Below are positions 1,376-58,052 of a stretch of DNA of 64,000 nt, in pieces. Within the stretch, counting starts at the first letter, position 1; the number at the start of each line of letters is the position of its first letter. The stretch is from NCBI RefSeq assembly GCF_004010195.1, contig NC_057727.1, positions 43,732,740 to 43,796,739 on the forward strand. Reading direction: 5' to 3'. The notes under the pieces were generated by a model. That model saw only the letters and a list, made by a program, of their open reading frames with translations. It did not search any database and was not told the origin of the DNA. The translations under genes were made by a program, and so were the position numbers. This DNA comes from Chiloscyllium plagiosum. Lineage: Eukaryota.

Positions 1376-1600
1376 CGAGTTTTGAAAAAATTTGTAGCTC
1401 AGGTTGAGGTTCTGGATCTAAGTTTGCTTGCTGAGCTGGAAGGTTCATTTTCAGACATTTCGTCACCATACTAGGTAACATCATCAGTTAAGTCTCCAGT
1501 GAACCAGTGCTTCACCGGAGGCTCACTGATGTTGTTACCTGGTATGGTGATGAAATGTCTGAAAATGAACCTTCCGGCTCAGCGAGCAAACTTGCATCCA
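1376..1600. mobile_element. Imperfect palindromic non-autonomous element (family A) with a hammerhead motif in each arm
   Basis: Arms ~1416-1503 and ~1511-1600 are reverse complements; minus strand 1487-1454 reads CTGATGA-T-GTTACC-TAGTAT-GGTGAC-GAAA-TGTC; plus copy 1526-1559 has mutations. Confidence 0.7.
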
Positions 1601-1796
1601 CGCTTGCTTTTTGTTTAAAACTATCAAGAATTGTTTTCTTTTCTTAGGAAAAACCCACAGATTGGAAACCTTTGGATAGATGGGAACATAGATTGGAAAA
1701 TTCCAGTCCAAGACTGGACACACATACTCTTCCTCAGGTGGGACAGGTACTGTTTGATGAGGCAGATGCTTGGATCCTTGATGTACTTCTGCTGTT

Positions 1797-2435
1797 TAGA
1801 CCATAAGACCATAAGACATAGGAGTGGAAGTAAGGCCATTCGGCCCATCGAGTCCACTCCGCCATTCAATCATGGCTGATGCACATTTCAGCTCCACTTA
1901 CCAGCGTTCTCCCTGTAGCCCTTAATTTCTCTAGACAACAAGAATCTATCAATCTCGGCCTTGAAGACATTTAGCGTCCCGGCTTCCACTGCACTCCGTG
2001 GCAATGAATTCCACAGGCCCACCACTCTCTGGCTGAAGAAATGTCTCTGCATTTCTGTTCTGAAATGACCCCCTCTAATTCTAAGGCTGTGTCCACGGGT
2101 CCTAGTCTCCTCGTCTAACGGAAACAATTTCCTAGCATCCACCTTTTCCAAGCCATTTATTATTTTGTACGTCTCTATTAAGTCTCCCCTTAATCTTCTA
2201 AACTCCAACGAATACATCCCAGTATCCTCAGCCGTTCCTCATATGTTAGACCTGTCATTCCAGGGATCATCCGTGTGAATCTCCGCTGGACACGTTCCAG
2301 TGCCAGTATGTCCTTCCTGAGGTGTGGGGACCAAAACTGGACACAGTACTCCAAATGGGGCCTAACCAGAGCTTTATAAAGTCTTAGTAGTACATCTCTG
2401 CTATTATATTCCAACCCTCTTGAGATAAGAGACAA
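1797..2435 (-). mobile_element. CR1-clade LINE 3' end (ORF2 C-terminus, 3'UTR, short-repeat tail)
   Basis: LYKALVRPHLEYCVQFWSPHLRKDILALERVQRRFTRMIP / LRGDLIETYKI / FFSQRVVGLWNSLP; (ataagacc)n tail at ~1797-1820. Confidence 0.9.
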
Positions 2436-2444
2436 CAGAGAGAG

Positions 2445-3403
2445 ACAAGAAGACGAAGAAGAATTAGATACGAAGAAGAAGAAGACGACGAAGACGACGA
2501 CGAAGACGACGACGACGAAGACGACGACGAAGACGAAGACGACGATGAAGACGAAGACGAAGCAGAAGAAGACGATGAAGACGACAAAGACGACAAAGAC
2601 GACAAAGACGACAAAGACGACAAAGACGACAAAGACGACAAAGACGACAAAGACGACAAAGACGACAAAGACGACAAAGACGACAAAGACGACAAAGACG
2701 ACAAAGACGACAAAGACGACAAAGACGACAAAGACGACAAAGACGACAAAGACGACAAAGACGACAAAGACGACAAAGACGACAAAGACGACAAAGACGA
2801 CAAAGACGACAAAGACGACAAAGACGACAAAGACGACAAAGACGACAAAGACGACAAAGACGACAAAGACGACAAAGACGACAAAGACGACAAAGACGAC
2901 AAAGACGACAAAGACGACAAAGACGACAAAGACGACAAAGACGACAAAGACGACAAAGACGACAAAGACGACAAAGACGACAAAGACGACAAAGACGACA
3001 AAGACGACAAAGACGACAAAGACGACAAAGACGACAAAGACGACAAAGACGACAAAGACGACGACGCAGACGAAGAAGAAGGCGAAGACGAAGAAGACGA
3101 AGAAGACGAAGAAGACGAAGAAGACGAAGAATTAGAAGAAGAAGAAAAAGAAGAAAAAGAAGACGACGAAGACGACGAAGACGACGAAGAAGGAGACGAA
3201 GAAGAAGACAAAGAAGACAAAGAAGACAAAGAAGACAAAGAAGACAAAGAAGACAAAGAAGACAAAGAAGACAAAGAAGACAAAGAAGACAAAGAAGACA
3301 AAGAAGACAAAGAAGACAAAGAAGACAAAGAAGACAAAGAAGACAAAGAAGACAAAGAAGACAAAGAAGACAAAGAAGACAAAGAAGACAAAGAAGACAA
3401 AGA
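2445..3403. repeat. Purine-rich compound tandem repeat: (GACGACAAA)n ~2580-3057, (GAAGACAAA)n ~3203-3403, GAA/GAC triplet mosaic; ends at an N gap
   Basis: Directly visible 9-bp periodicity. Confidence 0.95.
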
Positions 3404-3419
3404 NNNNNNNNNNNNNNNN

Positions 3420-3533
3420 GAACGCTGGTAAGTGGAGCTGAAATGCGCATCAGCCATGATTGAATGACGGAGTGGACTCGATGGGCCGAATGGCCTTACT
3501 TCCACTCCTATGTCTTATGGTCTTATGGTCTTA
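3420..3533 (+). mobile_element. CR1 3' terminus, same family as 1797-2435 in opposite orientation
   Basis: Near-exact reverse complement of ~1800-1908, ending in (ggtcttat)n. Confidence 0.85.
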
Positions 3534-3632
3534 TGTTACCCAGTATGGTGATGAAACGCCTGAAAACAAACCTTCCTGCTCAGCGAACTAAATTACATAC
3601 TTATCATCAACCTGAGGTACAAATCCTCTCAA
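3534..3632 (+). mobile_element. Truncated single arm of family A element
   Basis: tgttacccagtatggtgatgaaacgcctgaaaacaaaccttcctgctcagcga matches 1533-1587. Confidence 0.6.
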
Positions 3633-3689
3633 TCCAGCAGCTCACCTCGAACACCATGGACCTTCACCTTGCTCAGCAGCCTCCCGTGT

Positions 3690-4432
3690 GGTACCTTATC
3701 AAAGGCCTTTTGAAAGTCTAGATAGACCACATCCACTGGGTTTCCCTGGTCTAACCTACTTGTTACCTCTTCAAAAAATTCCAACAGGTTTGTCAGGCAT
3801 GACCTCCCTTTACTGTGAAGACTGACGCAAAGTACTTGTTAAGTTCTCCTGCTATTTCCTTATCTCCCATCACTAGGCTTCCTGCATCAGTTTGAAGTGG
3901 CCCAATGTCTACTTTTGCCTGTCGTTTGTTTCTTATGTACTGAAAGAAACTTTTACTATTATTTCTAATATTACTGGCTAGCCTACCTTCATATTTGATC
4001 CTCTCCTTTCTTATTACACTCTTTGTTATCCTCTGTTTGCTTTTGTATCCTTCCCAATCTTCTGATTTCCCACTGTTCTTAGCCACTTTATAGGATCTCT
4101 CTTTTTCTTTAATACATTTCCTGACTTCCTTTGTCAGCCAAGGTTGTCTAATCCCTCCCCGGTTAATCTTTCTTTTCTTGGGAATGAACCTCTGTACAGT
4201 GTCTTCAATTATACCTACAAACTCCTGCCATTTTTGCTCTACTGTCTTCCCGGTTAGCCTCTGCTTCCAGTCTATTTTAGTCAGTTCCTCTCTCATTCCC
4301 TCATAATTACCTTTATTCAACTGTAACACCATTACATCCGATTTTGCCTTCTCCCTTTCAAACTCCAGACTGAACTCTACCATATTATGGTCGCTACTTC
4401 CTAAGGGTTCCCTTACTTTAAGATCTTTTATA
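3690..4432 (-). mobile_element. CR1-clade LINE ORF2 internal fragments
   Basis: ORF 3793-4383: QPWLTKEVRKCIKEK...NSKSFFQYIRNKR...AGELNKYFASVFT; reverse strand near 3690-3730 encodes VVYLDFQKAFDKVPH. Confidence 0.85.
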
Positions 4433-4439
4433 AATCTTA

Positions 4440-5150: not shown

Positions 5151-5351
5151 TAGAGCTAAGTTTCAGCGCGTGCACACAAGCACGAGATGCATACTGCACC
5201 TTGATTACACTCTAGTGTATGTGCTGGATGCAACAAATCTTAACGTAATATTGATATCCAGTTAGACATAACCAAAAGCATTCAGTTTTTATGGGCTTAT
5301 TCTGAATTCAAAGTTTGGAAATTAAGAAAATGAAGATAAAAAATACATTAC

Positions 5352-5432
5352 CAGATTTTTAAGGAGTTCACATCCTAAACCTCCTGCTCCAATAACTAGA
5401 ACTTTGCAGGTCTCTAGAAGGAACTGGAGTGA
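5352..5432 (-). CDS. UBA3: UBA3 (NEDD8-activating enzyme E1 catalytic subunit) coding exon 4
   Basis: [27 protein letters not shown] with GxGxxG ATP-binding motif; ttctgcag acceptor and gtaatg donor; later exons not found in the window. Confidence 0.97.
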
Positions 5433-8378
5433 CTGCAGAAATAAATATGACAGCTCAGTCAACATCACAGAAGGAAAATCTTAATTTATTTTAAGGCTTT
5501 CAACAAAGTTTTCATATATTTTTGAGTTAAATTGATTTTGTATCCACAAAAAGAATAAACTATATGTTTCAGAACATTAAGTATATTTCAGCCTGGATTT
5601 TGCCATGAGCAGCAAAGCAAGAATGCTAATTATTGACCTTGTAAAAAGACAAGAAATCTAGTAACCTCCACTGCGTGAATTTCTCTCTTTCACCACACAG
5701 TGGATTGCTAATGTGAAGCAGGAATGATGTTTTCAAGTTATCTAAGCAACCAGTCACATAAGTGTTCTCATGCAAAGCGCAAAACTCAATTTTTTTTTAA
5801 ACTGTACACTAAAGATTGGAATATACATATTGGGTGAAGATAGAAGCCAAATTTTAAGGAAAAAATACTTTTAAAATAGTTTGACTATCTACTCATTAAT
5901 AATAATGCAGTCATTAACAACATTAACAGAAGTATAAACCTATTTTTCAGTGTCAGCTCTATTGCTAAGTAACAGTTTATTACTCAATTGAGCACTTGGA
6001 TCGGTTATATCTCAGGGGAGTTCTTGCCAAATTAACTGATTTCTTGTTGGGTCAGTGTAGGGTCTTAGTGCAACCTTAGCATAGCAGGGAATGAGAGGAT
6101 TTCTGCATTCATCTGCTCTTGCCCTTGAGGTTTTTGCTAATTTCAAAGGAATGACAATAATTGACATTGACAGTTCACAGTCAATAAAGCCCCACAAAAC
6201 TCAAAATCAACTTATAAAGAGCAGTTCCTTTTTGCCAAGTCTGTCCCCATATGTACACACATACAAGTGATGAGCATAGGTTTGTTAGAAAATATCTACA
6301 GTAGATACATTAATTGTGAATTGTGCTGGATTTTAAATATAAATGTGGACCAATATGTTGGAAAAGACAGCAACTTTCACAATTGTTTACATAATGCAAA
6401 CTGAACACATGAAAACTCTGAAAGCACTTGCAATCTTTGATTTGAAAAACTTGTGTGAAAAGCTGTACATTTCATTTCCAATTGGAATTTGTTTCTTTCT
6501 TATAGACAATGATTTACAGAAACACTTTCCCAATGTTAGCAACTTGAAATTAGGTTAGCTATATTATAGATTAGATGTTCTCTGTTCTGACAGTAGAATT
6601 CTAATTTTGGGTGAGTACTCAATACTGGGAGCAATACCATTACCAGTTAAAGTACATACAAAGTAAAATATTAGCATGTGTACTTCTTTTTAGGTTATGA
6701 ATCTATGTCTGCAAAACCTACACCGTACTCCCCCAATTATTTCATTTTAAAATAGTCAGAAGAGATTTAAAAGGTCAGAAACACAAGTAAACTGTACGAT
6801 AAGAATGTAATTGCACCGGAGGGGACGTTACCCAAATTAGAGCATTTTATCAGAGGCCTGATAGGCTTGGGTTACTTTCTTTACAGCAGAAAAGGCAGAG
6901 GGCAATCTGGTTAAGGTGTGTAAGATGACCAGGGGCTTGGACTCGTTGGATCAGCAGCTCTTCCCTTTAAGTAAAGGCTAAATAACAAAGGGGCATTATT
7001 TTAAAGGTGAAAAGCAAGAGTTTAAAGAGGATTTAAGGATTTTGCTTTCACCCAGAGGGTGGTGGGAATCTGGAATGAAATGAATGGAAGGGTAGTAAAA
7101 TCTTTGAAAAGTATATGAATGTGGACTTGAAATGTCATTACATTCAAGGCCATAGGTTGAATGCTGTAAAGTGGGATTTTGTGCAGACTTGATCAGCCGA
7201 ATGACCTCTTCTGTGCTGGATGACTATGAGCTATGTGCATTTCCCAACTGCCAATTACAAGTGGTTACAAAGACCGATAGAGAAACAGCAGTAATTCTAA
7301 AAAGGCTTTTGAAAATTTGTTTTATCAATGATTTGTCTTCAAGGCAAAGGCATACATTACCAAATGGAATTTGTGGCCAGGAAATTGCTCAAAATATAAA
7401 ATGGACAGAATGTTTAACACTACAGGCATATGAATTGGTTTATATTCATGAATATTGACCCTTAGGGTATATCAGTCGTTCTCAGATTGAAAACTGTTGG
7501 ATAATTGGACCAGAAAAGAAATTGCAATCTAAGTGTTCTAAGGACATACATTCTACTCCTAATTGTACATAAAGCTTCCATTAATATAGTTATTTTTCTA
7601 ATTAAATGGAAAAACCCATTGTAATTTGGAAATTCACAAAGCAGTTGATCTTGTAAGTTCATTCACAATGAGGCAAAGGAGCTGGAATGTGCAAAATTAA
7701 ACCATTACAACATTACTTCTGGTAAGAAGTTGTAATTGCATCTAGACTAGTTTCTACAAATAGTTTCAGTTACATACTATTCACAGCACAGAAACAGGCA
7801 ATTTTGACCACCACTTTTTATTCATTCTATATCCTTGTATTGCTTTCTCATAGTTTGCTTATCTCATGACCCTTTGAATGCACCAATGTCATTGCCTCAA
7901 TTACTGTGGTGTGACAGGAAGTTCCATTTTCTAATTCATTGCATGAAAATTCATGTTTACATTAAAAATAGAAATTGACTAAAGTGTCCCAGAAACTAGG
8001 ACTTTTTTTTAGGCCTAAATTGATTACTCTGAATTTGTAGGCACAAACAGGGGAATTTTAAACTTAACTGACTAGCAGGATTTTGACAAACCAGGCAAGC
8101 TACCTACATTTCACAATGAAGGTAAGAAAATACGGTTTACAGATGTTGCAACTCGGGAGTTCGATCAACGTTGTTGTTTTGTGTTAGTAAATAAAAACAG
8201 CAAAATGGAGTAGAGGTTTTACATGAGATGTAAGTTTCCAAATTTAACCAAATTTATTGTGTGACTCATTAGCATCTGATGTTTTGTTCTCATTGTGACA
8301 TAAACATTTAGCAAAAGCAAAAAAAAACTCTCAGCTACTATCCAATACCAAACTTTGATTTATAACAATGTTTCTCAC

Positions 8379-8499
8379 TTCAGTACTTGGTTCAAAGTCA
8401 GGATGTGTGAATGGTCCTGAGCGTTCAAGGAACTTCCTCACGTGATTCCAGCGACCTTCCCAGTCTCCAGTGTCCCCATACCCACCATCAACAGCCATT
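8379..8499 (-). CDS. UBA3: UBA3 coding exon 3
   Basis: [40 protein letters not shown]; 121 nt; AG acceptor, GTGAGA donor. Confidence 0.97.
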
Positions 8500-10987: not shown

Positions 10988-11026
10988 CGCCTATTATTGA
11001 TGAATGTTTATCCATTAAATTCCTAA

Positions 11027-12148: not shown

Positions 12149-12245
12149 TTCCGAGGAAGGGTCACCTGACCCGAAACATTAACATTGATTTCTCTTCACA
12201 GATGCTGCCAGACCTGCCGAGCTTTTCCAGCTACATCTGTTTTTG
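12149..12245 (+). mobile_element. 97-bp PLE-tail-like insertion starting with a hammerhead-like motif (family B)
   Basis: 12-bp TSD ttataaatggag (12137-12148, 12246-12257); CCGAGGA-A-GGGTCA-CC-TGACCC-GAAA at 12151-12176. Confidence 0.7.
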
Positions 12246-15970: not shown

Positions 15971-16082
15971 GGTATCACCATATGTCCTTCTATTTTTCAG
16001 GGATACTATGCCCAATTTACATAATTGTACATAATCAAATTTCAATGAAGATTGTAGGACAGTTTGCCAGGACTGGCACTAG

Positions 16083-16170
16083 TGCTGAGAGTGTGGTGCT
16101 GGAAAAGCACAGCAGATCAAGCAGCATCCGAGGAGCAGAGAATTGACATTTTGGGCATAAACCCTTCATC
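16083..16170 (-). mobile_element. 88-bp single-arm PLE tail insertion (family C) with degenerate hammerhead
   Basis: 16-bp TSD ccagga(c/t)tggcactag (16067-16082, 16171-16186); sequence matches the PLE tails at 1100-1180 and 25950-26035. Confidence 0.7.
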
Positions 16171-16399
16171 CCAGGATTGGCACTAGCCAAACCTAAAATG
16201 AGATATCAAACTGATGAAGCTACAAGCTACTTTCTATCCCAACAGCATCAGCAGCAAGTGATAAACAGGGCTAAGCGAATCCTCACCAATGGATCAAATC
16301 TAAGCACTTCCACATCCAGCTTTGAATGGTGGTGAACAATTAAACAACTCACGAGAGAAGTCTTAACAAATATACTCATCGTCAATGATGTAGGAGCAA

Positions 16400-24900: not shown

Positions 24901-25429
24901 TATCTTTTTTTTAAATTCAGTTCCATTGAGTCAAACAAGTCCCACAGAAGGGCCATGGGCATTTTTAGCAATTCACTAAAATGATGTACAAACAATGAAT
25001 TGATTCAATTCACTTTCTATGGTAAAACAGATGCGTTTTACTATCAATATTTGAAACACACTCTCGCTTAATGACTTCTGCAGTATACAGTGCTACAGTA
25101 GCTGGAGAACAAACTTTGGTATTTCAATTACTGACAATTAATCTAATGTCAGTGGTAGGACAATTATTGGGAAGAAAAGGGATATGGTTAATCTATACTT
25201 TGAAGCAAGAATTGATTGAGGATAGTCATCATGGATTTGTGAATGTCTATTTGATTAATTTTAATTGTTTTTTTTGGAAAGATGACTTAAATATATTGAT
25301 AAAGGTAGTGCAGTTAATGTGGTTTGCATAGACTTCAGGAAGGTCTTTGATAAGATCGCACATTAGAAGGTTCATGGGATCGAAGGCAAGATAGCAACCT
25401 ATATCCAAAATTGGCCTCCAAATAGAAAG

Positions 25430-25644
25430 CTGAAAATGTGTTGCTGGAAAAGCGCAGCAGGTCAGGCAGCATCCAAGGAACAGGAGAATCGACGTTTCGG
25501 GCATAAGCCCTTCAGGAATTCCTGAAGAAGGGCTTATGCCCGAAACGTCGATTCTCCTGTTCCTTGGATGCTGCCTGACCTGTTGCGCTTTTCCAGCATC
25601 ACATTTTCAGCTCTGATCTCCAGCATCTGCAGTCCTCACTTTCT
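25430..25644. mobile_element. Palindromic PLE-tail element (family C), centre GAATTC, intact hammerhead motif on + strand
   Basis: 15-bp TSD cctccaaatagaaag (25415-25429, 25645-25659); CTGAAGA-A-GGGC-TTAT-GCCC-GAAA-CGTC at 25522-25549; left arm lacks 3 nt of the core. Confidence 0.85.
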
Positions 25645-25909
25645 CCTCCAAATAGAAAGAAAAGCGTGATGGTGAGGGTTGTTTTGTCTGGAAACCTGTG
25701 ACCAGCAGTATAACACAGGGATTGGTGCTACAACCCTTACTGTTTGTTATGTATATTAATAACTTAGATGTAAATGTAAAAGGTATAATTTAGTAAGTTT
25801 GCAGATGACAAAAATTGGTGTTGATTGTGTGAAGGATTGACTCAAGCTGAAGTCTGATATCGATCAGCTGGTAAATTGGGTAGAGCAATGGCAGATGGAA
25901 TTTAACTAG

Positions 25910-26835
25910 GAGAAATTGAGGACTGCAGCTGCTGCTGCTGGAGATCAGAGTTGTGGTGCTGGAAAAGCACAGAAGGTCAGGCTACATCCAAGGAGCAGGA
26001 GAAGCAATGTTTTGGGTAAAAGCCCTTCATCAGGAATGAGGCTTGTGGGGGACTGACAAATGGTAGGGGGGGGGGTGGGGCTGGAGGGGAAAGTAGCTGA
26101 GAATGCATCAGGTAGATAAAGGTGATAGGTTGGAGAGGAGGGTGGAGTGGATAGATGGGAAAGATGATGGACAAGTCAAGAGGGGTGCTGAGTTGGAGGT
26201 TTGGGATTGGGCTAAGGTGAGGCAGGGGAAATAGGAAACTGGTGAAATCACCATTAATCCCGTGTGTTTGCAGGGTCCCAAAGCGGAAGATGAGCCGTCC
26301 TTCCTCCAGGTGTTGAGTGGTTAGGGTTTGACAATGGAAGAGGCCCAGGACCTGCATGTCGTTGAACTGTTCCGCCATAGGGCGGTGTGGTTAGTTGGTG
26401 CACGTGTCCCAAAGATATTCTCTGAAACAATCCACAAGTTGGCGTTCTGCCTCCCTGATGTAGAGGAGACCACATTGGGTGCAACGGATATAGTAGATGA
26501 CATTTGTGGAGGTACAGGTAAATTTCTGTTTTACGTAGAAGGATTCTTTTGAGGCCTTGGACAGAGATGAGTGGGGAGGTGTGGGTGCAGGTTTTGCACT
26601 TCTTGTGGTGGCAGGGGATGGTGCCAGGAGAGGGGGCTGGCTGGGGCAGCGGTGGATCTGACGAGGAATGGTCTCTCTGAAACTCTGATAGGGGTGGGGA
26701 GGGAAATATATCCCTAGTGGTGGAAGTGGCAGAGGATGATGCAATGTATATAGAGGCTGGTGGGTGGAAGATGAGAGCTATGGACTTCTGCCCTTGTTGT
26801 GTTGAGGGTTGGAGTTAAAGGGCGGATGTGGATGA
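25910..26835 (-). mobile_element. Penelope-like element 3' part (GIY-YIG remnant plus tail)
   Basis: KFTCTSTNVIYYIRCTQCGLLYIREAERQLVDCFREYL and MQVLGLFHCQ...LEEGRLIFRFGTLQTHGINGDF; homologous to 285-1190. Confidence 0.85.
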
Positions 26836-28264
26836 GATGTGTTGGAATTTAATCCTGGTAAGTATGAGGTGACAAAGTTTGGGAGGCCTAATGAAGGAAG
26901 GATATACTCAATGAATGGTAGGTCCAGAGATAGTACTGACAAACAAAGGGATCTTGGTGTACATATCCATAGATCCCTGAATGTGTCAACACACAATGGT
27001 GCAGAAGACATAATGGACGCTTACTTTCATTAGCCAGGGTGAGAACATAAGAAGGAAGTCTTGTTTCAACATTATAAAACATTGATCAGGCCATAGATGG
27101 AATACTTCGTGCAGTTTTGGTTGCAAGAGTGTAGAGGAGATTCAACAGGATGTTGCCTGGGATGAAAAGTCTGAGTAATGAGAAGCTGGGTGGGCTCTGT
27201 TTGCTTTTCCTTGGATCAGAGGAGATTGAGATGGGATTCAATTGAAGTACACAAAGTTTACAGGCAAATAAAGGGTAGATTGTGAGAATTGTTGCCCGGT
27301 GGCAGATGTGACTAAGCTCTGAGTTCACAAGTTTAAGGTGAGAAGTAGTGGTTTAGGGAAAATCTGAGGAAAAAATGTTTTCACCCAGAAGGTGGTGGAA
27401 GTATGGAATATGCTGCCTGAGAGGGTGGTGGAGCCAGGTACACTCAACATTTAAGAAGCATCTGGAGGAACACTTAAGATGCCAAGGTATAGTAGACAAT
27501 GGATCAAGTGCAAGTAAATGAGATTAGTATAGTTTGGTTTAGATGTGGTGGGCCAAAGGACCTGTTTCTATGCTACATGAGTCTGACTCTATAACATTTG
27601 CCAAAACTCAATTAACAGAGTAGCCAAGATATTGTTGACTCATGGTCAGGCTGGACCTGAGCGCTTGCATTGCTCAGTGCAATATCAATAGTCTGGTGAG
27701 AGATATGATTTTATTGTGTACTTTTAGTATTTGGATATCAAATGCTAATGGTAGTTTTTGAAGAGTTTAAAAAAGGTCTGGGTCAGATTGACCTTTAAGA
27801 ACTGACCTAATCTTGTACCTGACCAAATGGGTGACAGCAACACCCTGGAGTGTTGAAGGACTAAGGTGTTTATTGATTACAATAGGTAGGATGAACATTT
27901 GAAGGTTGTTAGCTTGTTTACATTTCAAAATAATTAAGGATTTTCTTTAGTTTAGAAAATCTATAGATAGGAGCAGTTCAGAAGAGACCTGATTTGGATT
28001 TGGGAGAATGCATATTTGTCTCAGAAGACTTGGTTAATTTCTGTACTGCGTCTTTTGGTACACGCTGCTACTACGGAGCATTGTTGGTGGAGGAAGTGAA
28101 CATTTGTAGATGATTTTTTTTAATTTCAAAAATATACTTTGGCACCAAATTATTTTATGAATAATCAAATGAGCTGCTTTGTCCTGGGTGCTGTTGCACT
28201 GCACTCATCCAAGCAAGTGAGGCATATTCTATCACACTTCTGACATGTGCCTAGTAGATGATGG

Positions 28265-28362
28265 CTGAAAAATGTGTTGCTGGAAAAGCGCAGCAGGTCA
28301 GGCAGCATCCAAGGAGCAGGAGAATCGACTTTTCAGGCATAAGCCCTTCTTCAGGAATGCCT
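28265..28362 (-). mobile_element. Single-arm family C PLE-tail insertion
   Basis: Near-identical to the left arm of 57868-57959; flanked by direct repeat gatgatgg (28257-28264, 28363-28370). Confidence 0.75.
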
Positions 28363-31300
28363 GATGATGGACAACCTTTTGGGGAGTCAGGAGGTCAGTT
28401 ACTCACTTCCTAGCTTTTATCCTGTTCATATAGTCAGCGTTTATATGCTTTCACCAGTTCAGACTTTGATTAATGGTAATCTTCAGAATATTGATGGTTG
28501 GGATTAGGCAATGGGATATCCAGGGCAATGGTTGGATGCTATCTTGTTGGAGATGGTCATTGCCTGGCATTTATGCTGTCACTATTACATGTCAGAATAA
28601 GCTTGGATATTCTCCAGGTCTTGCTGCTTTTGGACATAGACTACTTAAGTATGAGGAGGCATAAATGATGCTGAACATTGTATAACCATCAGTGAACATT
28701 CATACTTCTGACCTTTTGTAATGTAGGGTAGGCCATTGATGAAACGGCTGAAGGTGGTTGAACCTAGGGCACTACCATGAGGAACTGGATGGCTAAGAGC
28801 CTACCCCTGAACCTGAAGACCTAGGCTCAAGTCCCTCCTACCCCAGAGATGTGTTGTAGCATCTTTTATAAGAGTTGTTTTTAAAAATAACTACTCTGAG
28901 AAGTTCTTGCAGAGATGCTCTGGAGCTAAAATGACTGATTTTCCAACAACCGCAACCATCCTAATTTGCAGCAGACCTAACTCCAACCAACAGGGAGATT
29001 TCCCCTGACTCCCATTGACTCCAGTTTTGCTAGGGCTGTTTGGTGCCACATTCAATTAAATGTGGTCTTGATGTCAAAGGCTGTCACTCTTGCCTTCCCT
29101 CTGGAATCTCTCTCTTTTTTCCATGTTTGTAATGAGGTCAAAAGTTGAGTGGTCCTCGTGGTACTCTGAGTGTCTGTGAGCAAGGTATTGCTAAGCAAAT
29201 GTTTATTGAAAGCACTGTTGATACCTTCCATCACTTTATTAATAATTAAGAGTAAACTAATGGGGCAGTAAGTGGCTGGGTTTGATGTTATCCTACTTTG
29301 TATACAGGTCCTACCTTGTTGGGTAGATAGCTAATTGTACTTGTAATTGTACTTGGAATAAGCTGGTGTGGGTACAGCATGTTCTGGAGCACATGTCTGC
29401 AATACCAGTACTGAAGATTATGGCAACTTTGTCATCCTTCCCTTTGCATGATATGCTGGGCTCCTCTGTCCTTTAGCATTGGGATATTTGTGTAGTTTCC
29501 ATGTCCTGTAGGTTTAGGGAAGGAATTCCAGGATTTTGACCCAGTGACAGTGAAGGAACAGCACTATGTTTCCAAATCAGGATGGTAAGTGGCTTGGAGA
29601 GGAATATTTGGTGGTGTTCCCATGTATCTGCTACCCTTGCGCTTCTGTATGGGAATGGTTGTGGGATTGGAAGGTGCTGTCTCAGGATCTTTGGCAAATT
29701 TCTGCAGGCCGTCATGTAGACAGTACTTGCTGCTGCTATCGATGGTGAAGGAAGTGGATATGAAGGCTTCTGTCAGTATTGTTCATGCCCACAAGCTGCT
29801 TAGTTACCCAAGAGTCAATAAAATGGATGTTGCCTTTGGTATTCTTGACTGGTTTTAGCATTGTGACCAATCTGCAACCTGTCACTGGCTGAATCACACT
29901 TTATACATGCCTTCAGTGCTGATCCATCTACATATAACCTCCTGCTCTGCTTGAATTAAAACAGCAGTGTAATACAACATACAATAAGGTTCGAGAATCA
30001 AGTTACTGAAAATGAAGCAATCCCTCCTACAATCCTTGGTTTTAAAGCAATCCTTTACCATTTCGATCAAAAATACTTAGGCATAAAGGTATGGTCTTCT
30101 CAGTGTGGCTATCTGTTGTATTCTCCACTGGATTTAACTCCAGTAACAACTTCAGAATTGACTATTGGGTGCTGAGCATTAGTATCCAAGATGAGTTGCT
30201 GTCCTGATATCAGCCTCTGATAATTAATCTTTCTGCTTAAGGAAGATTATGAAACTTCACTCTGTGAATGCTTCTTATAGCTTGATATTGGTCTATTCCA
30301 TGAATTACCAGAAATTGTCAAGGGTCAGTGGACATCCCTCACACCCTTTATGCTGTTTCCTTCAATAATTTGAACTTCCTGTGTAGTTGATCTGGTCTTT
30401 AAAATTTTATCTGCTTTACTATGCAAATAACCTGTCTTTTCTAAGAAATGTCTGTAAGCTAGCCAAAAATGGATCATTAACATGTTATCTAATAGTGTTA
30501 TAATCCTGGAAAATTGAAGCTGACATTTCTAAATTAATATTATGAATAATAAAGACAATGGCAAGACTGCAACAGATCAGACACACAGGCATTCATTGTT
30601 TCCAGTGAATTAGTTTGCCAGAGATAGATAATGAATTCAGTGCTGTGGAATGGCAGGTGCTGGTGTTTAGATAACTATCAATAGATAATTTTCCACCAAT
30701 GGGAGGAGTGGAATGGGCATTTCAAAGGATTAGTTTGTGTTTCTTGTCCCTACAATAACTACTTGGTTATATGGTGTTTGAAAAAACTGTTTGCCAGGAT
30801 ATCACCAGAAATTGAAAATAACTCAGTAAAATTTAACATTTTAAAAATTAGATTGTACTCATTACTGGAGGGAAGAAAAGCCAACTTACTGGAAGTACTA
30901 AATCACTTGTTTAAGAAAATGTGCTGTATTTGAATGCCATATACTGACAACAATGGCCTGAGGGGACATGGTGATAATTAGTGCACTAGGCTTTTCTTGG
31001 TATTTGTTCCCAGAGCTCTGTTCCATGTTGTGTGAATGATTGTGTTATCTGAGTTTGCAGATAACAATGATATGCCCACATTTCCTTGATCTTTGACCCA
31101 TCGTTAAATCTTCTACCAGCGAAACTCAACTCAATTTGAAACTCAAACGTGGACACCTCCATCCATAATTGTTCAAAGGAGATGTGGGGAAGTAAAACAT
31201 TCTGTTTCCATTTTGGGAAGTAAATATTATTGTAATTTTGAGTTCTTACAAACTTTCTCATCTGAAATCTGCTCTGTATTTGCTGTTGGTTTTTAGTCAA

Positions 31301-35860: not shown

Positions 35861-38370
35861 CTGATTCTACAAATCAGTGTAACAACATGGTTTACACTGC
35901 ACATGATTCTAGTCTTATCCATTTCATATTGTCCACTTTCCTGTTATCTTACTTTGCCTTATTTTTAAGCTTCTTTTAAAGTACTGAGCTAACGTGATAA
36001 AGTTGTGATGCATTGTGGATATTGAAAACATGTATTGTGGCGAGAGGCAGCAATCAGCAGAGCCTTCAGACTTGCTGATTATGGAAAAGCCATTCAATCT
36101 TTAACCTTTGGCTCTTATGAGTTGTGATACATTGGGTCATCTTAAAGTGGAAACCAACCCTTTGGTCCATGCTGACTAGATATCCTAACCTAGTCTAGTT
36201 CTGTTTGTCAGCACTTGGCCCATACCCCTTTTAAATGCTTCATATTCATCTACCCATCCAGATACAATTACAACATTTTTAAACAAAAAATATATCAGCT
36301 TCCTCTGGCAGCTCAATCCATACACTCCCCACTCTGCATGAAAAAGTTGCCCCTTTAGATCTTTTTCCCTCAACCTGTGCCATCTTGTTCTGGACTCCCC
36401 GACCCACACCAAACCTTTTGAGGGTGAATAGCCAAGGTCTTTCTCCTATCTATGCCCCTCATGATTTTATAAACCGCTATAAGGTCAGTCTCTGACACTC
36501 CAGGGAAAATAGCCCCAGCCTCTTCCATCACTCTCTCTAGCTCACTCCAAGGCCACTTCCTAATAATGAAGGCTTGTGTGATGGAGTCATTCCGATTTGT
36601 TCAAGTCACTTAATCTTTCTATCATGTGAGAATATTGTGAAATGCAAGATTGGATAAGATTGTATGAAGTTAAAACTCACACAATACTGGGTTATGGTCC
36701 ACAGGTTTATTTAGACATACTTCCGAGTAAACCTGGTGTGTTTTTTTTTAAACTTTGTCTACCCCAATCCAACACCAGCACCTCAAGGTTGTATGAAATA
36801 GTTTTATTCAGTAATATCATGTAATCAGTCAAAAGTTATCTGGATGTTGTGTAGTTTATCTGAATTGTAAAAGTATTGGTGTCAAATGTTCCCCAAAATA
36901 TGAATAGACTGTTTCCTTGTGTATGGTGTGATGTACCAAACATTTTAATGAGGTAATCAAAATGTTGTCTGCATGGTGTTATAAAGTTATAGGATATTTT
37001 CCTGTCACATTAACATTATTGTACAATATTGTTTTGAAGTATAATCTAATCCTTTTGGGTGTTTAATGGTTATGGTTGGGCCACTTAAAAACAAATACGG
37101 CATCACTTTTTATTTTTGTTGCTGCTCTTCATTTGGTGACCTCTGCTGCATATGTCAATGATATCTTTAACCAGAGTCAACAACTGGCTTTATCACCTTT
37201 ACTATGACCTTTATGTAATTGTATAAATTTGTTCATTTTGAATGGGGGGATAAATGTGAATGATGAAGAGGGCAGAGAATAAGTGGTTTGGACATGGGTG
37301 AAGTCTGTCATTTCTCTCCTTGCTCTGACTGTGGGGACTGGCCAGGAAAATCTCTTGACCTTGATACAGAATGGTCAAAGAGATTGAAAGAACCAGATTC
37401 CCTACTTCTACTCATAATCTGTTCCTATGTAATTTTTACTTTTGGACTGCAGGAAACCAATTAAATAATAGACTCGTCCAAACCAGTTCATCACTTGATA
37501 TTTAAAATTTTAATAAAAAGTTGTTAAAGTTAATTTAAACTTGACATTTTGACAAGAACCTGAGAGAATTCAGATTGACAGCTTTGTTTTAATTCAATGA
37601 AAGCAAAAAGGAGTAGCAGATAACAAAATCCTGAGATCAAATTACAGAATAGACTGATTGATTAATTCTAATGAGTACCAAAACGGTGGAGTGACTTTTC
37701 TGGAGGAACAGATATTGAGGATCAGCTGGGGCACAAGCCATTATAGATCTAGCATCATGCAATTAGAGAGTGCTAATTTAATCTCCTTGTAAAGAAACAT
37801 TTTTGGAAGTATTGAAAATAGTATGATTTTTCTTTTGAGCACAAGAAAAATTTTAGTTCAATTGCAAATGAGGATCTTCAACCTAAGCTAAAGCAATCAT
37901 GAAAGTATGAGGAAGAGGCTAGTGGTGGATTGAAAAAATGTGTTAAAAGATTAGATGGTAGCTAGGTGATGACCCGTGTTTAAAGTAATGTTTGGTTTTC
38001 AAAAGAATATATTTGCTATGAGGCTAAAATATCCAGATGATGGTGAATTATTGCAATTCTACTTCCTGAGGGCTGTGGAAGTTTTTATTCATTTAAGGTC
38101 AAGATAGAGATTAACTAGAAAAGCTGTCACTATAACATCCAGGCTTATGGAAATAATGTGGGAATCTACCACTGAGCTCGATGATCAGCCATGCTCTAGA
38201 ATGGTGGAGCAGGCTCAATGGCCTGAATGGCATATTTGTGTTCCTATGTTCCTAATAAGGAATATTTTATTCTTTTCTTGGTGAACATTCCTGCCTTTTT
38301 TCCCAAGGCAGTCTAAGATCCAACTTTGACTTTCTTATTTTACTTATGTAATTTTATTTTTTGTTGGCAG

Positions 38371-38729: not shown

Positions 38730-39065
38730 AGAATTCCTACGATGTGGAAACAGGCCATTTTGGCCCAACAAGTCCACACTGCCCCTCCGAGGAGTATCCC
38801 ACCCAGACCCATTCCCCTATCCCTACTACTCTACATTTTCTCCTGACTAATGCACCTAGCCTACCCCATCCCTGAACACTGTGGGCAATCTGGCAGGCCA
38901 ATCCACCACATCTTTGGACTGTGGGAGGAAACTGGAGGACGTGGAGGAAACCCACACAGACCCTGGGAGAATGTGTGTGGAGCTTGCACAGTCATCTGAT
39001 GCTGGAATCGAACCCTTGACTCTGGCGCTGAGACAGCAATGCTAACCACTAAGCCACCATGCTAC
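38730..39065 (-). mobile_element. HE1-like SINE
   Basis: Reverse complement of the SINE at 15630-15970. Confidence 0.85.
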
Positions 39066-39129
39066 TATCATGTGCTCCAGTGGGAGTGTTGAAACTAATG
39101 TTAACCAGGCTTAGAGCTTCTGACTGTTG

Positions 39130-39465
39130 TCATGGGGCAGCATGGTGGTTCAGTTGTTAGCACTGCTGCCTCACAGGGAAAGGAGCCTCAAGTGACTTTT
39201 GTTGGTGTGGAGTTTGCGCGTTCTCCTGTCTACGTAGATTTCCAACAGGTTCTGTGGCTTCCTCCCAAAGTCCAAAGATATGCAAGTTGGGTAGATTGAC
39301 CATGCTGAATTACCCATAGTGTCCAGGGATGTGCAGGTTAGGTGGATTAGACATGGGAAATGCAGGGTTACAGTGTTAGGGTAGTGTGGTGGGGCAGGGA
39401 GGGATGCTTTGAGTGTCAGATTGTGCTTGATGGGCTGAATGATCTGTTTCCACACTGTAGGGATT
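39130..39465 (+). mobile_element. HE1-like SINE
   Basis: ggggcagcatggtggttcagttgttagcactgctgcctcac head; tail cacactgtagggattt. Confidence 0.85.
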
Positions 39466-40780: not shown

Positions 40781-42458
40781 CTGCTGTCAATTTTTAAAAA
40801 TTGACGACAAACTGGTGCTGTATACATTTATCCCAGATGAGGTAGACTGCATTTACTGATTCATAACATACTTCCACTTTGTTTTTCTAGCTGCTAAAAT
40901 TAAGAAAGATATTGATATCTCTGTACAATACTTCATTAGTTTGCTGTTTAATGCAAGTATCCCAATTGTCATGGCAAGACTGGATGACTTCTGACTGTAA
41001 ATTTCCATGCACTTAAGATAATTTTAAAGCTGGCAATACCCATGTACAATGCATTCTATGTACATAACATGACGGTTGCGTTTCTGCAACCTTGCGCTAT
41101 AGAAACTGCTATAAAAAAAATCACTAAACCCATTTCAGTAGGAAGTTCACATTATACAAACAGAGTCCACAATTCATCAGTTGTCATAGCCAATTCGAAT
41201 TGACAAAATGTGCATTATACCAGAATGACCTATACTACTTCCTTATTAGCACTGCCTATTTTTCACTTGAAAACATCACCTGACTTCACCTTTACTGAAA
41301 GGTTTACTCTTGTCTTTGGTATTCCATCTAACTCCACACTGTTTTGAGCTCATTCAAAGCTCTACCACCCCTATCCTTACTTGCACAAATTCCTGTTCAA
41401 TTACTGACCTTGTGCTTTTTTTGTATTAGTGTGGTTTTATGACCACTTGCATGAGTTTGGATTCACAATAGACTGCTCAAGAGAAAACAAGACCAGGTGT
41501 TATCTTTAGGCTTGGTCTTTTTAATAGACATTTTTTTTCACACATTCCGACTCAGTGCTATGATGCATGGGTATTCAGATATTTGCCAGATCTGTTGTTA
41601 TCTTCTGTTATTGGAAGCCTATTCCATAAATAATACACAATGCTAGTGAATGTACTTCACATGTTTCTAGATGTTTTCAAATCAACCCGATCAAAGATGT
41701 TATTGCACACTTCTAGAGCATGTGGGACTTGGACCCAGGTCTCCTATCTGAGAGGTAGAGATACCACCACTGTATGACAAAAGCCACTTGTTTCTCCCTC
41801 TGAATTATAACTCCTCCCCTTTGCTATTTATGCCTAGTGAGAATATCATTGCAAAATTGCATCAGGGTCTTAAAGTCTTTATGTTGGTTCTTAGTCAAGC
41901 AATATTTCCGTTTTAAAATTTTCACTTTTTAAAAAAAAAATTGCCATGGGCATAACTGCTGCTTTAACAAACTCCAGTTCCACAACTCTATCTGCACTGA
42001 CATCGTTCTGATCTTGAGCATTTTTTTTTATTTGTACTGTTCTAATAATGGTAACTGTCATAAAGGTAGGCCATTTGACTCCTTGAACCTGCTCAGCCGT
42101 TCAATAAGATAATAGCTGATTTAACTTGACATTCCCACCACTCTCAAAGTACATTTTTGAAATATATTAAAAAATTTCAATGACATTTCAACCCTGTCCA
42201 CCCCTGCTTATCAAGAACCTATTTATCTTTGCCTTAAGAACGGAGTCCCAAAGGCTCTTGACCATCTGTGAGAAAATATTTCTGTTCAGCCTTAAATAGA
42301 TGATCCCTTAATTTTAAAGTGACTCTGAATTCCAGGTTCTTCCATAAGAACTATCTTTTCTACGTCCACCTTTCCAGACTCTTCAGGAATTTGTGTGTTT
42401 CAATCAAGTTATGTTTTGCCCTTCTAACTCTCTGTCCTTCTCAACTCCAGTGGATACA

Positions 42459-42671
42459 TGATTTGGAGATGCTGGTGTTGGACTAGGTGTACAAAGTTAA
42501 AAATCACACAACACCAGGTTATAGTCCAACAGGTTTAATTGGAAGCACGCTAGCTTTCGGAGCATCCCTCCTTCATCAGGTGATAGTCACCTGATGAAGG
42601 AGCGATGCTCTGAAAGCTAATTTGCTTCCAATTAAACCTGTTGGACTATAACCTGGTGTTGTGAATTTTAA
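42459..42671. mobile_element. Palindromic element (family D) with a hammerhead motif on each strand
   Basis: 12-bp TSD ccagtggataca (42447-42458, 42672-42683); + strand CTGATGA-A-GGAGC-GAT-GCTCT-GAAA-GCTA (42591-42619); - strand counterpart 42579-42551; a collapsed relic of the family at ~36668-36785. Confidence 0.85.
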
Positions 42672-46227: not shown

Positions 46228-48294
46228 CTATAAAACAACATAAGGAGAAAACTATGAATTTAAGCATTTACTCTAACTTAATTATGAAATAATTACACAG
46301 GCTACTTTGTTACAGGCATCATGTTTCCTTAAAGCAATAGCATTTATTTGCATAGTGCATGATCAGAACCTTGCAAAATTCCAGAATGCTTTACATCACC
46401 CAAGGAATAATATTTAAGTACGGTTAGTGTTCTCTAAGTAAATGCAACACGTTATGTGTGCACAAAAACATTCAACTGACAGCAATCCAGTTGAGAGGCC
46501 AGCTAATTTGTTTTGGGTGGTGATAATTAAAGAAGGAATGTTAACTATAAGAAATTGTCAGAAATGATTATGCTATCTCACAATTTATGATTGTCTCTGT
46601 TTTGTTTCAAAATTTAAAAAGAGCAAGAATGCAAAAGAAAAATAGATATTTTCTCCTGCTTCTCTAATCCCGAAGTTTGTATATGGGAGAGAGTAAGGGC
46701 TGCTGAGTATCTCAATTATGAGTCAACACCTTCAGGGGGCAAGATAGAAGAATATTGACAAACAAAGAGATAATAATGATCATTGTTTTTAAGTATTACC
46801 TGGTAATATATTTCACACTCTGACAATATCGAAGCACAGTGCTGTTATAATTCCCAAATTAAGTAATATCATAGTTAGAGCAATTCCTTGGTGACTTGGC
46901 TATTTTATGTCATTAGTTGATGTTTAAAATGTTTCAGTTAGTTGTTCAAAGCTTTGTGTCCAAATACTTGAGTAAATTTGCCAATGAATTATGTGTACAA
47001 GCAAGAGTGGAAGGTATCTTATGTTTTTGTTCAAAGTTAAATTGACATAGAAAATAGGCACAATTTCTCCCATCGATTTTCACTAGGTGCTTTAATCACA
47101 TTTGGTTATATTATGTCCAAAACCAATAAATTATTTTTTGTGGTATATATATAAAACATTATTCATATTTTTTGCTGTATTTCTGACTTTGCTGAGATAC
47201 TGTATTTAAGAGAGTTAACACAGTTGCTAAAGTAGAGAAGTATCATTTGAATGTGATAAACACTGCCAGTAATTTCTAATTCTCAACTTTACAAGATAAT
47301 AGTTACATGTAGCAAAAGACATCAGCATTAACTTTCTTCATTACTGCAGTAAAGAAAATATAAAAAGCTCTGTCCAAAATCAATTTGAAGCTAATTTGGC
47401 TGATAGGACATTGGAAGAGCTTTAAAAAAGACAAAGAGGCCCTCGAAAGACAGACAGTACACAAAGTAGATAGGTCACCCTGCCAAGATGGAAAGCATCC
47501 CAGCTTGCTGAGGATACTAAGAGTAGAAATTGTGGAAGTGCTGATCACAATCCTCGTTAGACACAAGATAGTGTGAGAGTGCTGGGCACTGGAAGTGTTA
47601 CATACAAAATAAGAGGAGAAAGGTAAACCTGGCAACTACATGTCAGTCAGTTTAATGTTGGTAGTGGGAAAGCTTTTAGAAAAAATGAACAGCATTTGAA
47701 TAAGCGTGGATTAATACAGGAGAGCAAGCATGGATTTATTAATGATGAATATATTCCACTCCTGAGCATCCATATCTCACTGCAGTAGGGTATTCCACAG
47801 ATTCGCATTCCTCTGAGTTAAAACAAAACTTGCCCTCATCTCATCTTCAATGGCCAATATATTATACTGAGATCATTGTTTTCAATCAAAATAAGTCCTA
47901 ACTTTGCACCTCCCCTTTGAAATCTCTGAGAATTTTCTGTGTTACAATTAAACCTTTTCTTCCAAATGCTAGAGGATGTACCAGGAGGATCATTCTATCC
48001 AATTTCTTCTTACAGGACATTCATCTCATCTCCCAGAAAATGTTCCATGGAAGTTTTGCCACAGTCCCTTCGAATACAAGTACATCTTTCTTCCAGTAAA
48101 AACACAATTTTATGTGGTACTTCAATAGTGCAGTAAGGCCCATATTATTATAGCAAGACTTCATTACCCTTATACTTCAAATTTTTTGTCAAAAGGCAAA
48201 CAAACCATTTGCCTCCCAAATCACGTACATAGCTGCATCTTACCTTTCTGTGACTGTGTACATGAATGCACAAATCCCTTTGAATGCCAACAGT

Positions 48295-55470: not shown

Positions 55471-55807
55471 CTGTTGGAAAGACAGACTTTCAGTTTTGTG
55501 TCATTTTTTTGTTTTCGGCAAAGTACAGTTTCATAATTCTAATAAAGTTCAAGTACAAATGTTATAAACACCACTCTTACTATACAAAACTTTCTCATAA
55601 AAATCAGAATCATTTAATTAGAAATTCTTCAAAGCCATTTTTAAGATTTCCACTGTTTCATTTCAGTACAGTACAAATGTAACTCCTTTGGGAAATGAGC
55701 CAGGAAATGAATGAATATATCACAGTCTATCTCGCCCATGTTCAAGTGAATTTGTTAATTTGCTACATGTACAACTGGCTGTATCCAAATGCAGGGTGAG
55801 ATTCCAT

Positions 55808-56135
55808 ATAGAATCCCTACAATGTGTGAGCAGGCCATTCAGCCTATCGAGTCCACACCAACCCTCTGAACAGCATCCTAACCAGACCCTTTCCCTGCAT
55901 TTCCCATGACTAATCCACCTAGCCTGCACACTATGGGCAATTCAGCATGGCCAACCCACCTAACCTGCATATCTTTACCCTGTGGGAGGAAACTGGAGCT
56001 CCCAGACGAAATCCACGCAGACAGGGGGAAAATGTGCAAACTCCACACAAACAGTCACAACAGCTGGAATCAAATCCAGGTTCCTGGAACAGTGAGGCAG
56101 CAATGTTAACCACTGAGCCACCACGCCACCCCAAT
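55808..56135 (-). mobile_element. HE1-like SINE in LMOD3 intron 1
   Basis: GGGTGGCGTGGTGGCTCAGTGGTTAACATTGCTGCCTCAC head on the minus strand. Confidence 0.85.
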
Positions 56136-56386
56136 GCTGGTGGGAAGCTGGGCAGTTACTGAAACCCAGTGCCAAACTAGAAGGAATAAGGTCCAGTTTG
56201 TATGTTGGAGTTGCAATATCTCAGGTACAGTGGATATTGTGAGAGTGGAAGTAATATCTTTGGATATTCTAGGAAAAATGTTATGTGGGTTTCATGGCTG
56301 TTTCTGTACGTGGTTACAACGGGTTTCACTGAGGCAGTATCACTCTGCTTTCTTGTTCCCCCAGCTACTCTTCAGCACACACTCAC

Positions 56387-56680
56387 CTCGTTGTTCAGCA
56401 GAATGACCGGGATCCTTTCCTCCTCCAGCAATCGGCTGGACTCCTTCTCCCAGTACAAGTAGTCAATCAGGGATCTGTGATCGAAGGAGCCAGTGGGAGC
56501 TTTCTCTGTGTGATCTCTCTGCCTCTGCCCTAAGGGCACAAGCGGGTCAGGGTCCAGAACTTCCATCTCGTTTTGTAGTTGCTTCAATTCTTCGGGAGAC
56601 AGAGTTGCCAGGATTTCATCCTCATCCAGCTCCCCGCTGTTGGACTCTTTGTCGTCCTGTTCCTGGCTGCAGTCAGACAT
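56387..56680 (-). CDS. LMOD3: LMOD3 coding exon 1 (tropomodulin-like N-terminal domain)
   Basis: MSDCSQEQ...DEDEILATLSPEELKQLQNEMEVLDPDPLVPLGQRQRDHTEKAPTGSFDHRSLIDYLYWEKES; 294 nt; GAG|GTGAGT donor. Confidence 0.96.
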
Positions 56681-56804
56681 GGTCGGTGCCTTCTGGAAGA
56701 AGATCGCTGGGGAAAGTTTGGACTTCAGCTAGAGACTTCCTGTCCCTCGGCCTTCCCGGAGCAAATGTCCAGAACTCAGCACGCAGCAGTGCTGCCGAGC
56801 TGCC

Positions 56805-56920
56805 TGCGGTCTATATTAAGCACAACTCTCTGCCAAAATAGTCCTGGGCTCTGCACTGTTTTTTTTCAGCAGCTTCTGTCAGCTGCAGGAGTCACCCTGA
56901 CATTTCACTCCAGCTGGGTC
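56805..56920 (-). promoter_or_regulatory. Putative LMOD3 muscle promoter: AT-rich TATA-like box (56811-56820), MEF2-like CTATTTTGGC (56832-56841), CAGCTG E-boxes (56880, 56911)
   Basis: Motif cluster 130-240 nt upstream of the ATG; the MEF2 match is imperfect. Confidence 0.5.
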
Positions 56921-57828
56921 CCTTTCACTCCAGGTCTTGGAAGGTTTTCGAGAACATTCGCTTGGCAGCCTAACCTCAAACTGATTAGGGCAAAGCATTT
57001 ACGATGTAAATATTAGTCTTTCTGTACGTGTTAATAGTGGAGTTGGGGGAACATGTTCATTCCGATTTTTATTGGGATCATTAACTCTTCGCTGGGAAGG
57101 GATGTGACGACAGAAGTACTGTGATTATTGACCTAGTTGGAAATTGACTTGGCTACTGAATTTGAAGTTACCCCTCTGAGTTTCCAGACAGTCTCCCCAA
57201 CATTTTCTTCCCAGCCACTTAAATTGGCGCAAAACGCTGCAGCCCTGCAACTTCATGAAACGTTCTGAAACCCCCTTGAGATGCAAAAATAACAGGAATA
57301 GCTAAAGGGATTGTCTGAATGGGGAAACGGAGGGAGGAATGCATTAAGCCCACAGTTCATGGTAACCGAAGGGGTCATGTGGTTGCTATTTTCAAAACGG
57401 GATACGTGCACATGTGCCTGCAGGAATTCAAAGATTGCTTGAAGACCTTATCAAAGAAAAATAGGCATGATTCATATAGAAACGACGATTTTTCCGCATT
57501 AATGTAGATTGTAAATTTGGTAATTGGAACAATTAGATCCAAATTTGGATAACACCAGTCACATCAGCAGATGAGACTGTTTTGGTTGTCTCTGGCATAC
57601 ACAAAGGATGCCCATGGGAGCACTGTCCTCAAGATGGTGCACTTCACTGGAAGTGACTGCCAGAAAAGCACACAGCCACAACCACCCCCCGCCCCCCACT
57701 CCCGGCCCCCCAGCCTCAGAGTGAACCAAGCAACAGAATCATGATTTTCTGATCTTGTTTCAACATTTTGGGGTATTAGAAAGGAACTTGGAACGTAATT
57801 CTTTCTGAATTGGCCCTCATTTTTATCT

Positions 57829-58052
57829 TCGAGAGAAAGTGAGGGCTGCAGATGCTGGAGATCAGAGCTGAAAATGTGTTGCTGGAAAAGCGCAGCAGGT
57901 CAGGCAGCATCCAAGGAACAGGAGAATCGACGTTTCGGGCATAAGCCCTTCTTCAGGAATTCCTGAAGAAGGGCTTATGCCCGAAACGTCGATTCTCCTG
58001 TTCCTTGGATGCTGCCTGACCTGCTGCGCTTTTCCAGCAACACATTTTCAGA
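57829..58052. mobile_element. Family C element containing a perfect 184-bp spacerless palindrome (57868-58051) with two intact hammerhead motifs
   Basis: 14-bp TSD cctcatttttatct (57815-57828, 58053-58066); CTGAAGAAGGGCTTATGCCCGAAACGTC at 57963-57990 (+) and 57956-57929 (-). Confidence 0.9.

Follow-up and report, generated by a model that had tools for sequence, protein, structure and literature searches.

The stretch of Chiloscyllium plagiosum DNA analysed here (64,000 nt of contig NC_057727.1, hereafter the window) contains short repeats of four families, A to D, with a minimal hammerhead ribozyme motif. All four are the 5'-truncated 3' ends, or pseudo-long terminal repeats (pLTRs), of Penelope-like element (PLE) retrotransposons. 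They occur as single copies (arms), as longer copies that extend upstream into coding sequence, and as doublets of two arms joined head to head. Positions within an arm are counted from the first C of the hammerhead core, which is 0. Their 3' ends fall into two classes about 35 nt apart, a short one at about +80-95 and a long one at about +115-125. The features of the window are listed below.

1..1177, plus strand: C-clade PLE copy, 5'-extended and running past the window start, with the end of the reverse transcriptase (RT) region, a CxxC linker, a GIY-YIG open reading frame (ORF) piece at 198-830 (Pfam GIY-YIG E 2e-4), a 3' untranslated region (UTR), a hammerhead with a 3-nt core deletion near 1097, and a short 3' end.
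1375..1600, both strands: family A head-to-head doublet, junction about 22 nt upstream of each core; minus arm 1375-1509 with a long 3' end and core from 1487; plus arm 1503-1600 with a short 3' end and core from 1526, A9 mutated.
3533..3635, plus strand: family A single arm, core lost.
12149..12245, plus strand: single arm of family B with U4 of its core mutated (CCGA), flanked by direct repeats of 12 bp (12137 and 12246).
16081..16176, minus strand: decayed C-clade single arm.
25430..25644, both strands: doublet of family C, in which the short minus arm lacks 3 nt of its core and the long, tailed plus arm has an intact core at 25522; 15-bp target-site duplication (TSD) at 25415 and 25645.
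25908..26666, minus strand: older C-clade PLE copy, with at least 690 nt upstream of the core and GIY-YIG-type reading frame pieces.
28265..28362, minus strand: single arm of family C that extends to about 5 nt upstream of the core, with direct repeats of 8 bp (28257 and 28363).
36661..36784, both strands: family D doublet without core, arms starting at +36 and +59, one with a short and one with a long 3' end.
42459..42671, both strands: doublet of family D, in which the long, tailed minus arm has its core from 42579 and the short plus arm has its core at 42591; 12-14-bp TSD at 42447 and 42672.
57829..58052, both strands: family C doublet forming a 184-nt perfect palindrome; both cores are intact, that of the long minus arm at 57956 and that of the short plus arm at 57963; 14-16-bp TSD at 57815 and 58053.

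A preliminary description of the window had counted about ten copies; we found more, 16 arms. The inverted doublets it reported for A, C and D were recovered as inverted pairs at 1413-1600, 25428-25612, 42507-42663 and 57861-58058. The family A doublet was left out of the TSD test described below, and by eye no TSD is evident there. The family C single arm is inserted in sequence (28200-28420) that resembles a long interspersed nuclear element (LINE) RT coding remnant. About 1.1-1.5 kb before the window start (L111:4517-4950), there is an inverted arm from the younger C subfamily, opposite the first PLE copy and separated from it by a gap of 1 kb; because the two are about 80% alike, it is probably a separate insertion.

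A strict scan (CUGANGA, 0-1 extra base, helix II of at least 4 bp, GAAA) gave 8 matches in the window against a mean of 0.14 (maximum 1) in 50 shuffles; one of them, at 47508, lies outside all four families. The same scan of a genome sample, 80 blind 10-kb stretches fetched at round-number coordinates (772,051 non-N bases), gave 61 matches against 1-5 in 5 shuffles. The motifs first noticed in A (minus strand, from 1487), B (12151), C (25522 and 57963) and D (42591) were all found again. The single extra base after A9 is present in each of them and precedes helix II in 56 of the 61 sample matches. Family majorities retain the full core, helix II pairing, a palindromic helix III and a helix I of 2-4 bp. 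Helix II differs in sequence among the families and still pairs, as had been described, and the palindromic helix III noted in C (ACGU) and D (AGCU) is also the majority form in A (ACGU) and B (ACGU). The CCGA core of the window B copy and the UGUC helix III of the window A copy are signs of decay, the family majority core being CUGA. Across families every helix sequence differs while pairing is maintained in helices I and II; covariation inside C is slight (pair 9-18 is GC in 74 copies and AT in 5), and helix I of that family is just 2-4 bp, with a U-U mismatch. Among C arms that span the core, 54 of 89 keep it intact. An Rfam scan returned 16 matches at E<=10, the hammerhead family not among them, and the folding energy of single motifs, an uninformative measure here, was no better than that of shuffles in three of four cases. 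The core CUGANGA...GAAA-N-N-U-H with its extra base and palindromic helix III is that of the minimal type I hammerheads described in metazoan PLEs, which lie in pLTRs and have a base between 9 and 10.1 and palindromic 15.2-16.2 positions (PMC4209133).

Of the 227 arms in the sample, 140 belong to C, 43 to B, 35 to D and 9 to A; doublets joined head to head number 56. Extrapolated from this sample, which covers chromosome-scale contigs only, to the 3.56-Gb genome, this amounts to about 1.0 million arms and 2.6e5 doublets genome-wide, and the suggestion of a very large genomic population thus holds. A first-look search with the C-clade GIY-YIG protein piece of the window gave 158,959 candidates genome-wide.

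Longer copies in families A, B, C and D extend upstream into PLE-type ORFs, two of them in the window, and upstream ORF pieces were found for all four families. A near full-length C-clade copy (L124) runs from hammerhead and tail through the ORF, an assembly gap, the RT region and GIY-YIG domain, and the 3' UTR to a second hammerhead that ends at the short site; its pLTR is a 103-nt direct repeat of 93% identity flanking the ORF. Pfam GIY-YIG scores in the C clade were 24.0 bits (L128; cut-off 22.6), 22.0 (the window copy) and 19.8 (L124). Pfam gave no RT match in L124, where apparent RT motifs were recognised by eye. GIY-YIG-type ends lie upstream of D and of B, and a C-terminal RT piece lies upstream of A. 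The D and A pieces matched C-clade proteins in pairwise comparison (E 5e-5 and 4e-7) and gave no matches in a Pfam scan; a solved-structure search at E<=1 also gave no match. Family A resembles Penelope/Poseidon-like elements. A single ORF with RT followed by a C-terminal GIY-YIG endonuclease (EN), a trait of endonuclease-bearing (EN+) PLEs, is present in the C clade, and the assignment of A, B and D rests on fragments. The pLTR is seen in L124, and the optional EN+ traits, namely a 30-40-bp tail, an inverted 5' copy and a TSD, are all present. The C clade also has a CX2-5CxxC linker between RT and EN, by which the Neptune and Nematis clades are defined (PMC8557442).

The preliminary description had read the four families as dissimilar micro-elements that converged on one ribozyme architecture. 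Blastn within the window indeed found no similarity among A, C and D in helix II, helix I or tails. However, all four hammerheads lie at the same place downstream of PLE-type ORFs, B and C tails share a 35-nt stretch at 89% identity, and the architecture is general to metazoan PLEs (PMC4209133). We therefore regard convergence as highly improbable; the repeats are 5'-truncated PLE ends, because all four run upstream into PLE-type ORFs and B and C have a common tail, and the common architecture is most simply inherited. Two other element classes were considered and rejected. Non-LTR retrozymes are direct tandem units, each with a hammerhead and no ORF, whereas these arms are single or inverted and continue into ORFs. 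A miniature inverted-repeat transposable element or DNA transposon has identical terminal inverted repeats and a fixed interior, whereas the outer ends here are offset by about 35 nt and the centres vary. At one locus (L119:934-1060), a C arm is inserted within the endonuclease coding region of another PLE copy. At another, on the minus strand of L093, the hammerhead of the arm at 7333-7438 is immediately preceded by sequence that resembles the L124 ORF start, as in a short, internally deleted tandem unit or a circle junction.

Doublets have a consistent geometry. TSDs of at least 10 bp, mostly 13-17 bp, surround 29 of 36 testable C and D doublets against 3 of 60 controls, and hence a doublet represents a single insertion event. 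A long 3' end was combined with a short one in 49 of 55 A, C and D doublets (5 from the window), where 50% is expected (p 9e-10). Of 30 well-matched long/short doublets, 17 have inner ends no more than 9 nt apart; in 10 the long (tail) arm starts at least 10 nt downstream, so that neither arm contains the other. One of these 10 non-nested doublets is cut by a locus edge, 8 have a TSD of at least 11 bp, and in three independent cases the tail arm covers just +81..84 to +125. One non-nested doublet has been tandemly duplicated together with its flank (L045:1-418), and two tail-only arms (+81..+125; L053:9910-9954 and L097:5184-5227) adjoin inverted arms with 5' ends near -216 or beyond, the most unequal arms observed.

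The main rival account of this geometry is a fold-back, in which the cDNA reaches the hammerhead and primes itself on a short palindrome, trimming of the second arm by the endonuclease creates the short 3' end, and non-nested arms arise by later deletions. Such self-priming would fit several features of the junctions. The inner ends of doublets in which each arm extends to +15 are coupled, with 25 pairs in which both stop, 3 in which both pass and no mixed pair (two rows were hand-corrected for overlap). Two junctions with 2-3-nt inverted overlaps recur, +2/-3 five times and +9/-1 three times. Arms are often near-identical: when all copies are ranked by similarity to an arm, its partner falls in the top 10% for 17 of 29 doublets in C and for 4 of 10 in D, which is compatible with one template and does not prove it. 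Self-priming at PLE inverted junctions has also been proposed before, but on antisense template (PMC3846280). Non-nested arms, a third of the well-matched doublets, mostly with a TSD, go beyond what one fold-back event can give and therefore argue against a simple fold-back and for priming from both nicks. The truncated arm is moreover the tail arm in 10 cases against 3, and both 3' ends occur on single copies (33 long, 25 short) and correspond to start sites mapped in vitro (PMC11167929). We thus consider a fold-back with later deletion unlikely, and of the earlier proposal that one mechanism ties the ribozyme to an insertion or fold-back junction, the positional tie stands and the simple fold-back is disfavoured.

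Doublets could also be non-autonomous palindromic master elements, copied whole with an inherited junction. The exact recurrence of some junctions and the common junction centre of two window C doublets would suit this. However, every family has many different junctions, at which the arms overlap by 1-3 nt or are separated by small inserts; those that recur are found in either long/short polarity and in differing helix II subfamilies; and singles and ORF-anchored copies end in the same zone. This reading is already largely refuted, and we consider it very unlikely.

The 5' ends of arms were mapped relative to the core, as the preliminary description had proposed, and are far from random. The analysis covered 133 C arms whose 5' end lies no farther downstream than +60. 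Of these, 61 stop within -10..+10 where 8.5 are expected, a rate of 0.036 per nt at risk; the rate is 0.016 in the bin -11..-30 and 0.003-0.005 in each of the remaining four bins. The pile-up is about 8-fold over background. The arms of one doublet are not independent, and singles were counted separately: singles alone gave 15 ends in this zone where 3.2 are expected (p 2e-6). Family D gave 13 where 3.1 are expected. Since old subfamilies differ upstream of helix I, the count was repeated on well-matched copies under a stricter alignment: 50 of 81 end at -9..+9, a few ends being understated by some bases. In contigs from an independent DNA run, depth falls about fourfold across -4 and 117 loose ends at -4 have unlike continuations, both partly confounded by subfamily divergence. 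Thirty-nine copies chosen by ORF-start sequence were also classified by reading, of which 3 could not be used. Of the other 36, 20 end at +30..+117 and 16 reach +28; 12 of these 16 end by -30 (at -30..+28) and 4 pass. Junctions and 5' ends are thus tied to the position of the ribozyme, in singles as well as doublets. Long and short arms start about 35 nt apart and end at the same place, and therefore position, not length, sets the 5' end. Some ORF-anchored copies (L131, L138, L144 and L166) bear short inverted arms that also end at the hammerhead, some further rearranged.

Self-cleavage by the hammerhead could fix the end of the template and hence the junction, and the intact cores of many C arms and the 3 of 36 ORF-anchored copies that end at +28..+30 would be consistent with this. 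The cut predicted for family C is at +27/+28, though, about 30 nt downstream of the pile-up and junction, and no run-off peak was found there, with 4 of 140 C arms ending at +26..+30; cleavage therefore does not set the end. Self-cleavage is also dispensable in vitro (PMC11167929), and as the determinant of the junction it seems most improbable.

We suggest instead that each doublet is probably one insertion in which both nicked target strands primed and the two copies were joined head to head at the 5' edge of the ribozyme. Reverse transcription would be primed by both strands, one at each of two internal start sites, perhaps by one protein dimer on one uncleaved RNA. The short-site copy may go first with the tail-site copy behind; both cDNAs would halt at a barrier at the hammerhead 5' edge and then be joined, possibly through microhomology, and copies that pass the barrier would become ordinary longer PLE insertions. 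An Anolis PLE studied in vitro nicks and extends both strands, is predicted to be dimeric, does not need cleavage and has two internal start sites bounding the tail (PMC11167929), which the tail and two 3'-end classes here match.

For the nature of the barrier, the chances are about even that it is the RNA 5' end, a few bases upstream of the core. This is favoured because the in vitro template needs ORF sequence 3' of the start sites, and the 5' pLTR is the only copy followed by such sequence; because the 5' repeat of L124 begins about 15 nt upstream of its core; and because transcription in Drosophila begins within the pLTR. The start there lies 46 nt ahead of an intron (PMC2377424), and the end of that intron has been mapped to helix I (PMC4209133). 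A stall at the hammerhead 5' edge is nearly as likely, since tests for a start site gave nothing. No excess of a cap-derived G precedes the -4 end in C copies (6 G, 6 A, 9 C and 5 T; n=26), and B copies gave no support (3 of 8; in the window B copy the G belongs to the TSD). A poly(A) single-cell RNA run, a library type that cannot map starts, gave 2,210 reads; they fall on both strands and pile up at neither starts nor ends. A second run yielded no reads. Families B and C have an initiator-like motif around -4, which was not counted because it is degenerate, shares bases with helix I and is missing from D.

Several observations weigh against the reading we prefer. An RNA 5' end as barrier sits poorly with the missing G excess, with the spread of 5' ends over about 20 nt, and with the 20 of 36 ORF-anchored copies that end earlier, at +30..+117. 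For poorly matched copies the pile-up is inflated, since sequence upstream of -4 differs among the old subfamilies. Making two cDNAs from the same stretch of one RNA would require a putative strand-displacement activity of the PLE. Non-nested arms might instead reflect a deletion that later removed unequal lengths on the two sides of the palindrome centre. There are also 3 of the 30 well-matched doublets in which the long arm reaches at least 10 nt farther upstream than the short one. The six B doublets, old and poorly resolved copies excluded from the count of 55, scored short/short in 5 cases at the threshold used. Finally, most singles lack a TSD (4 of 31 have one), which priming from both strands leaves unexplained.

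One further repeat of the window, at 38907-39282, is short interspersed nuclear element (SINE)-like and consists of two inverted copies without a hammerhead.

The pattern bears on the origin of PLE inverted ends and the one-sided tail and on the role of the PLE hammerhead. A two-ended scheme, if true, would explain together why pLTRs are inverted, why the tail is on one side and why hammerheads standing nearly alone are so numerous, and the roughly quarter-million 200-bp palindromes of this genome would be abortive strong-stop products. The elements and ribozyme type are known and the mechanistic pattern is testable. As a general scheme we advance tentatively that PLE integration may be routinely two-ended, with a dimer priming from both nicks, one subunit at each start site of one uncleaved RNA, and with the hammerhead 5' edge as a conserved, strong-stop-like template boundary beyond which most cDNAs would not extend. 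The genome supplies very many small insertions whose geometry separates the models, and the existing in vitro PLE system allows a direct test of two-ended priming and of the hammerhead stop.

Twin priming is known from LINE-1, where primers from both target strands produce an inverted 5' part within one TSD. The second LINE-1 primer acts at variable internal sites and the arms barely overlap, whereas here the start sites are fixed and one arm usually covers nearly all of the other. Earlier work has already described this class of element and of ribozyme, the inverted pLTR, the tail and the TSD (PMC4209133, PMC3846280, PMC8557442, PMC8969392). We found no work that ties PLE 5' ends to the hammerhead or proposes PLE twin priming, nor the positional pile-up or the long/short and non-nested statistics, though subscription papers, Repbase and supplements may hold such material.

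The metazoan PLE hammerheads of PMC4209133 have in common with these repeats the pLTR location, the base 9/10.1, G10.1-C11.1, palindromic 15.2-16.2 and short helix I, as well as many families per genome, mostly single copies and some opposite-strand pairs. Those pairs lie about 100-700 bp apart, whereas most cores here are 0-30 nt from the junction. Helix II here is 4-6 bp, unlike theirs; density is far higher (about 10^6 arms by extrapolation, against up to 9,000 motifs); and truncation points are analysed here, an analysis absent from the available text of that study. The inverted pLTRs of EN+ PLEs (PMC3846280, PMC8557442) are alike in the head-to-head 5'-truncated copy, the TSD around the unit, the junction palindromes and the one-sided 30-40-bp tail; here the whole unit is down to about 200 bp and very common, and where those accounts invoke self-priming with endonuclease resolution, the non-nested arms point to two priming events. 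Anolis PAc, of the Poseidon clade, is similar in its two internal start sites, which bound the tail downstream of the hammerhead, in the nicking and extension of both strands, and in the use of uncleaved RNA; the main text of that report is silent on inverted doublets and 5' ends, and family C here has the Neptune-type linker (PMC11167929). Non-LTR retrozymes share a type I hammerhead, derivation from PLE pLTRs and occurrence in vertebrates, but they are direct tandem repeats, whereas the copies here are dispersed single or inverted ends that continue into ORFs (bioRxiv 10.64898/2026.07.22.740005).

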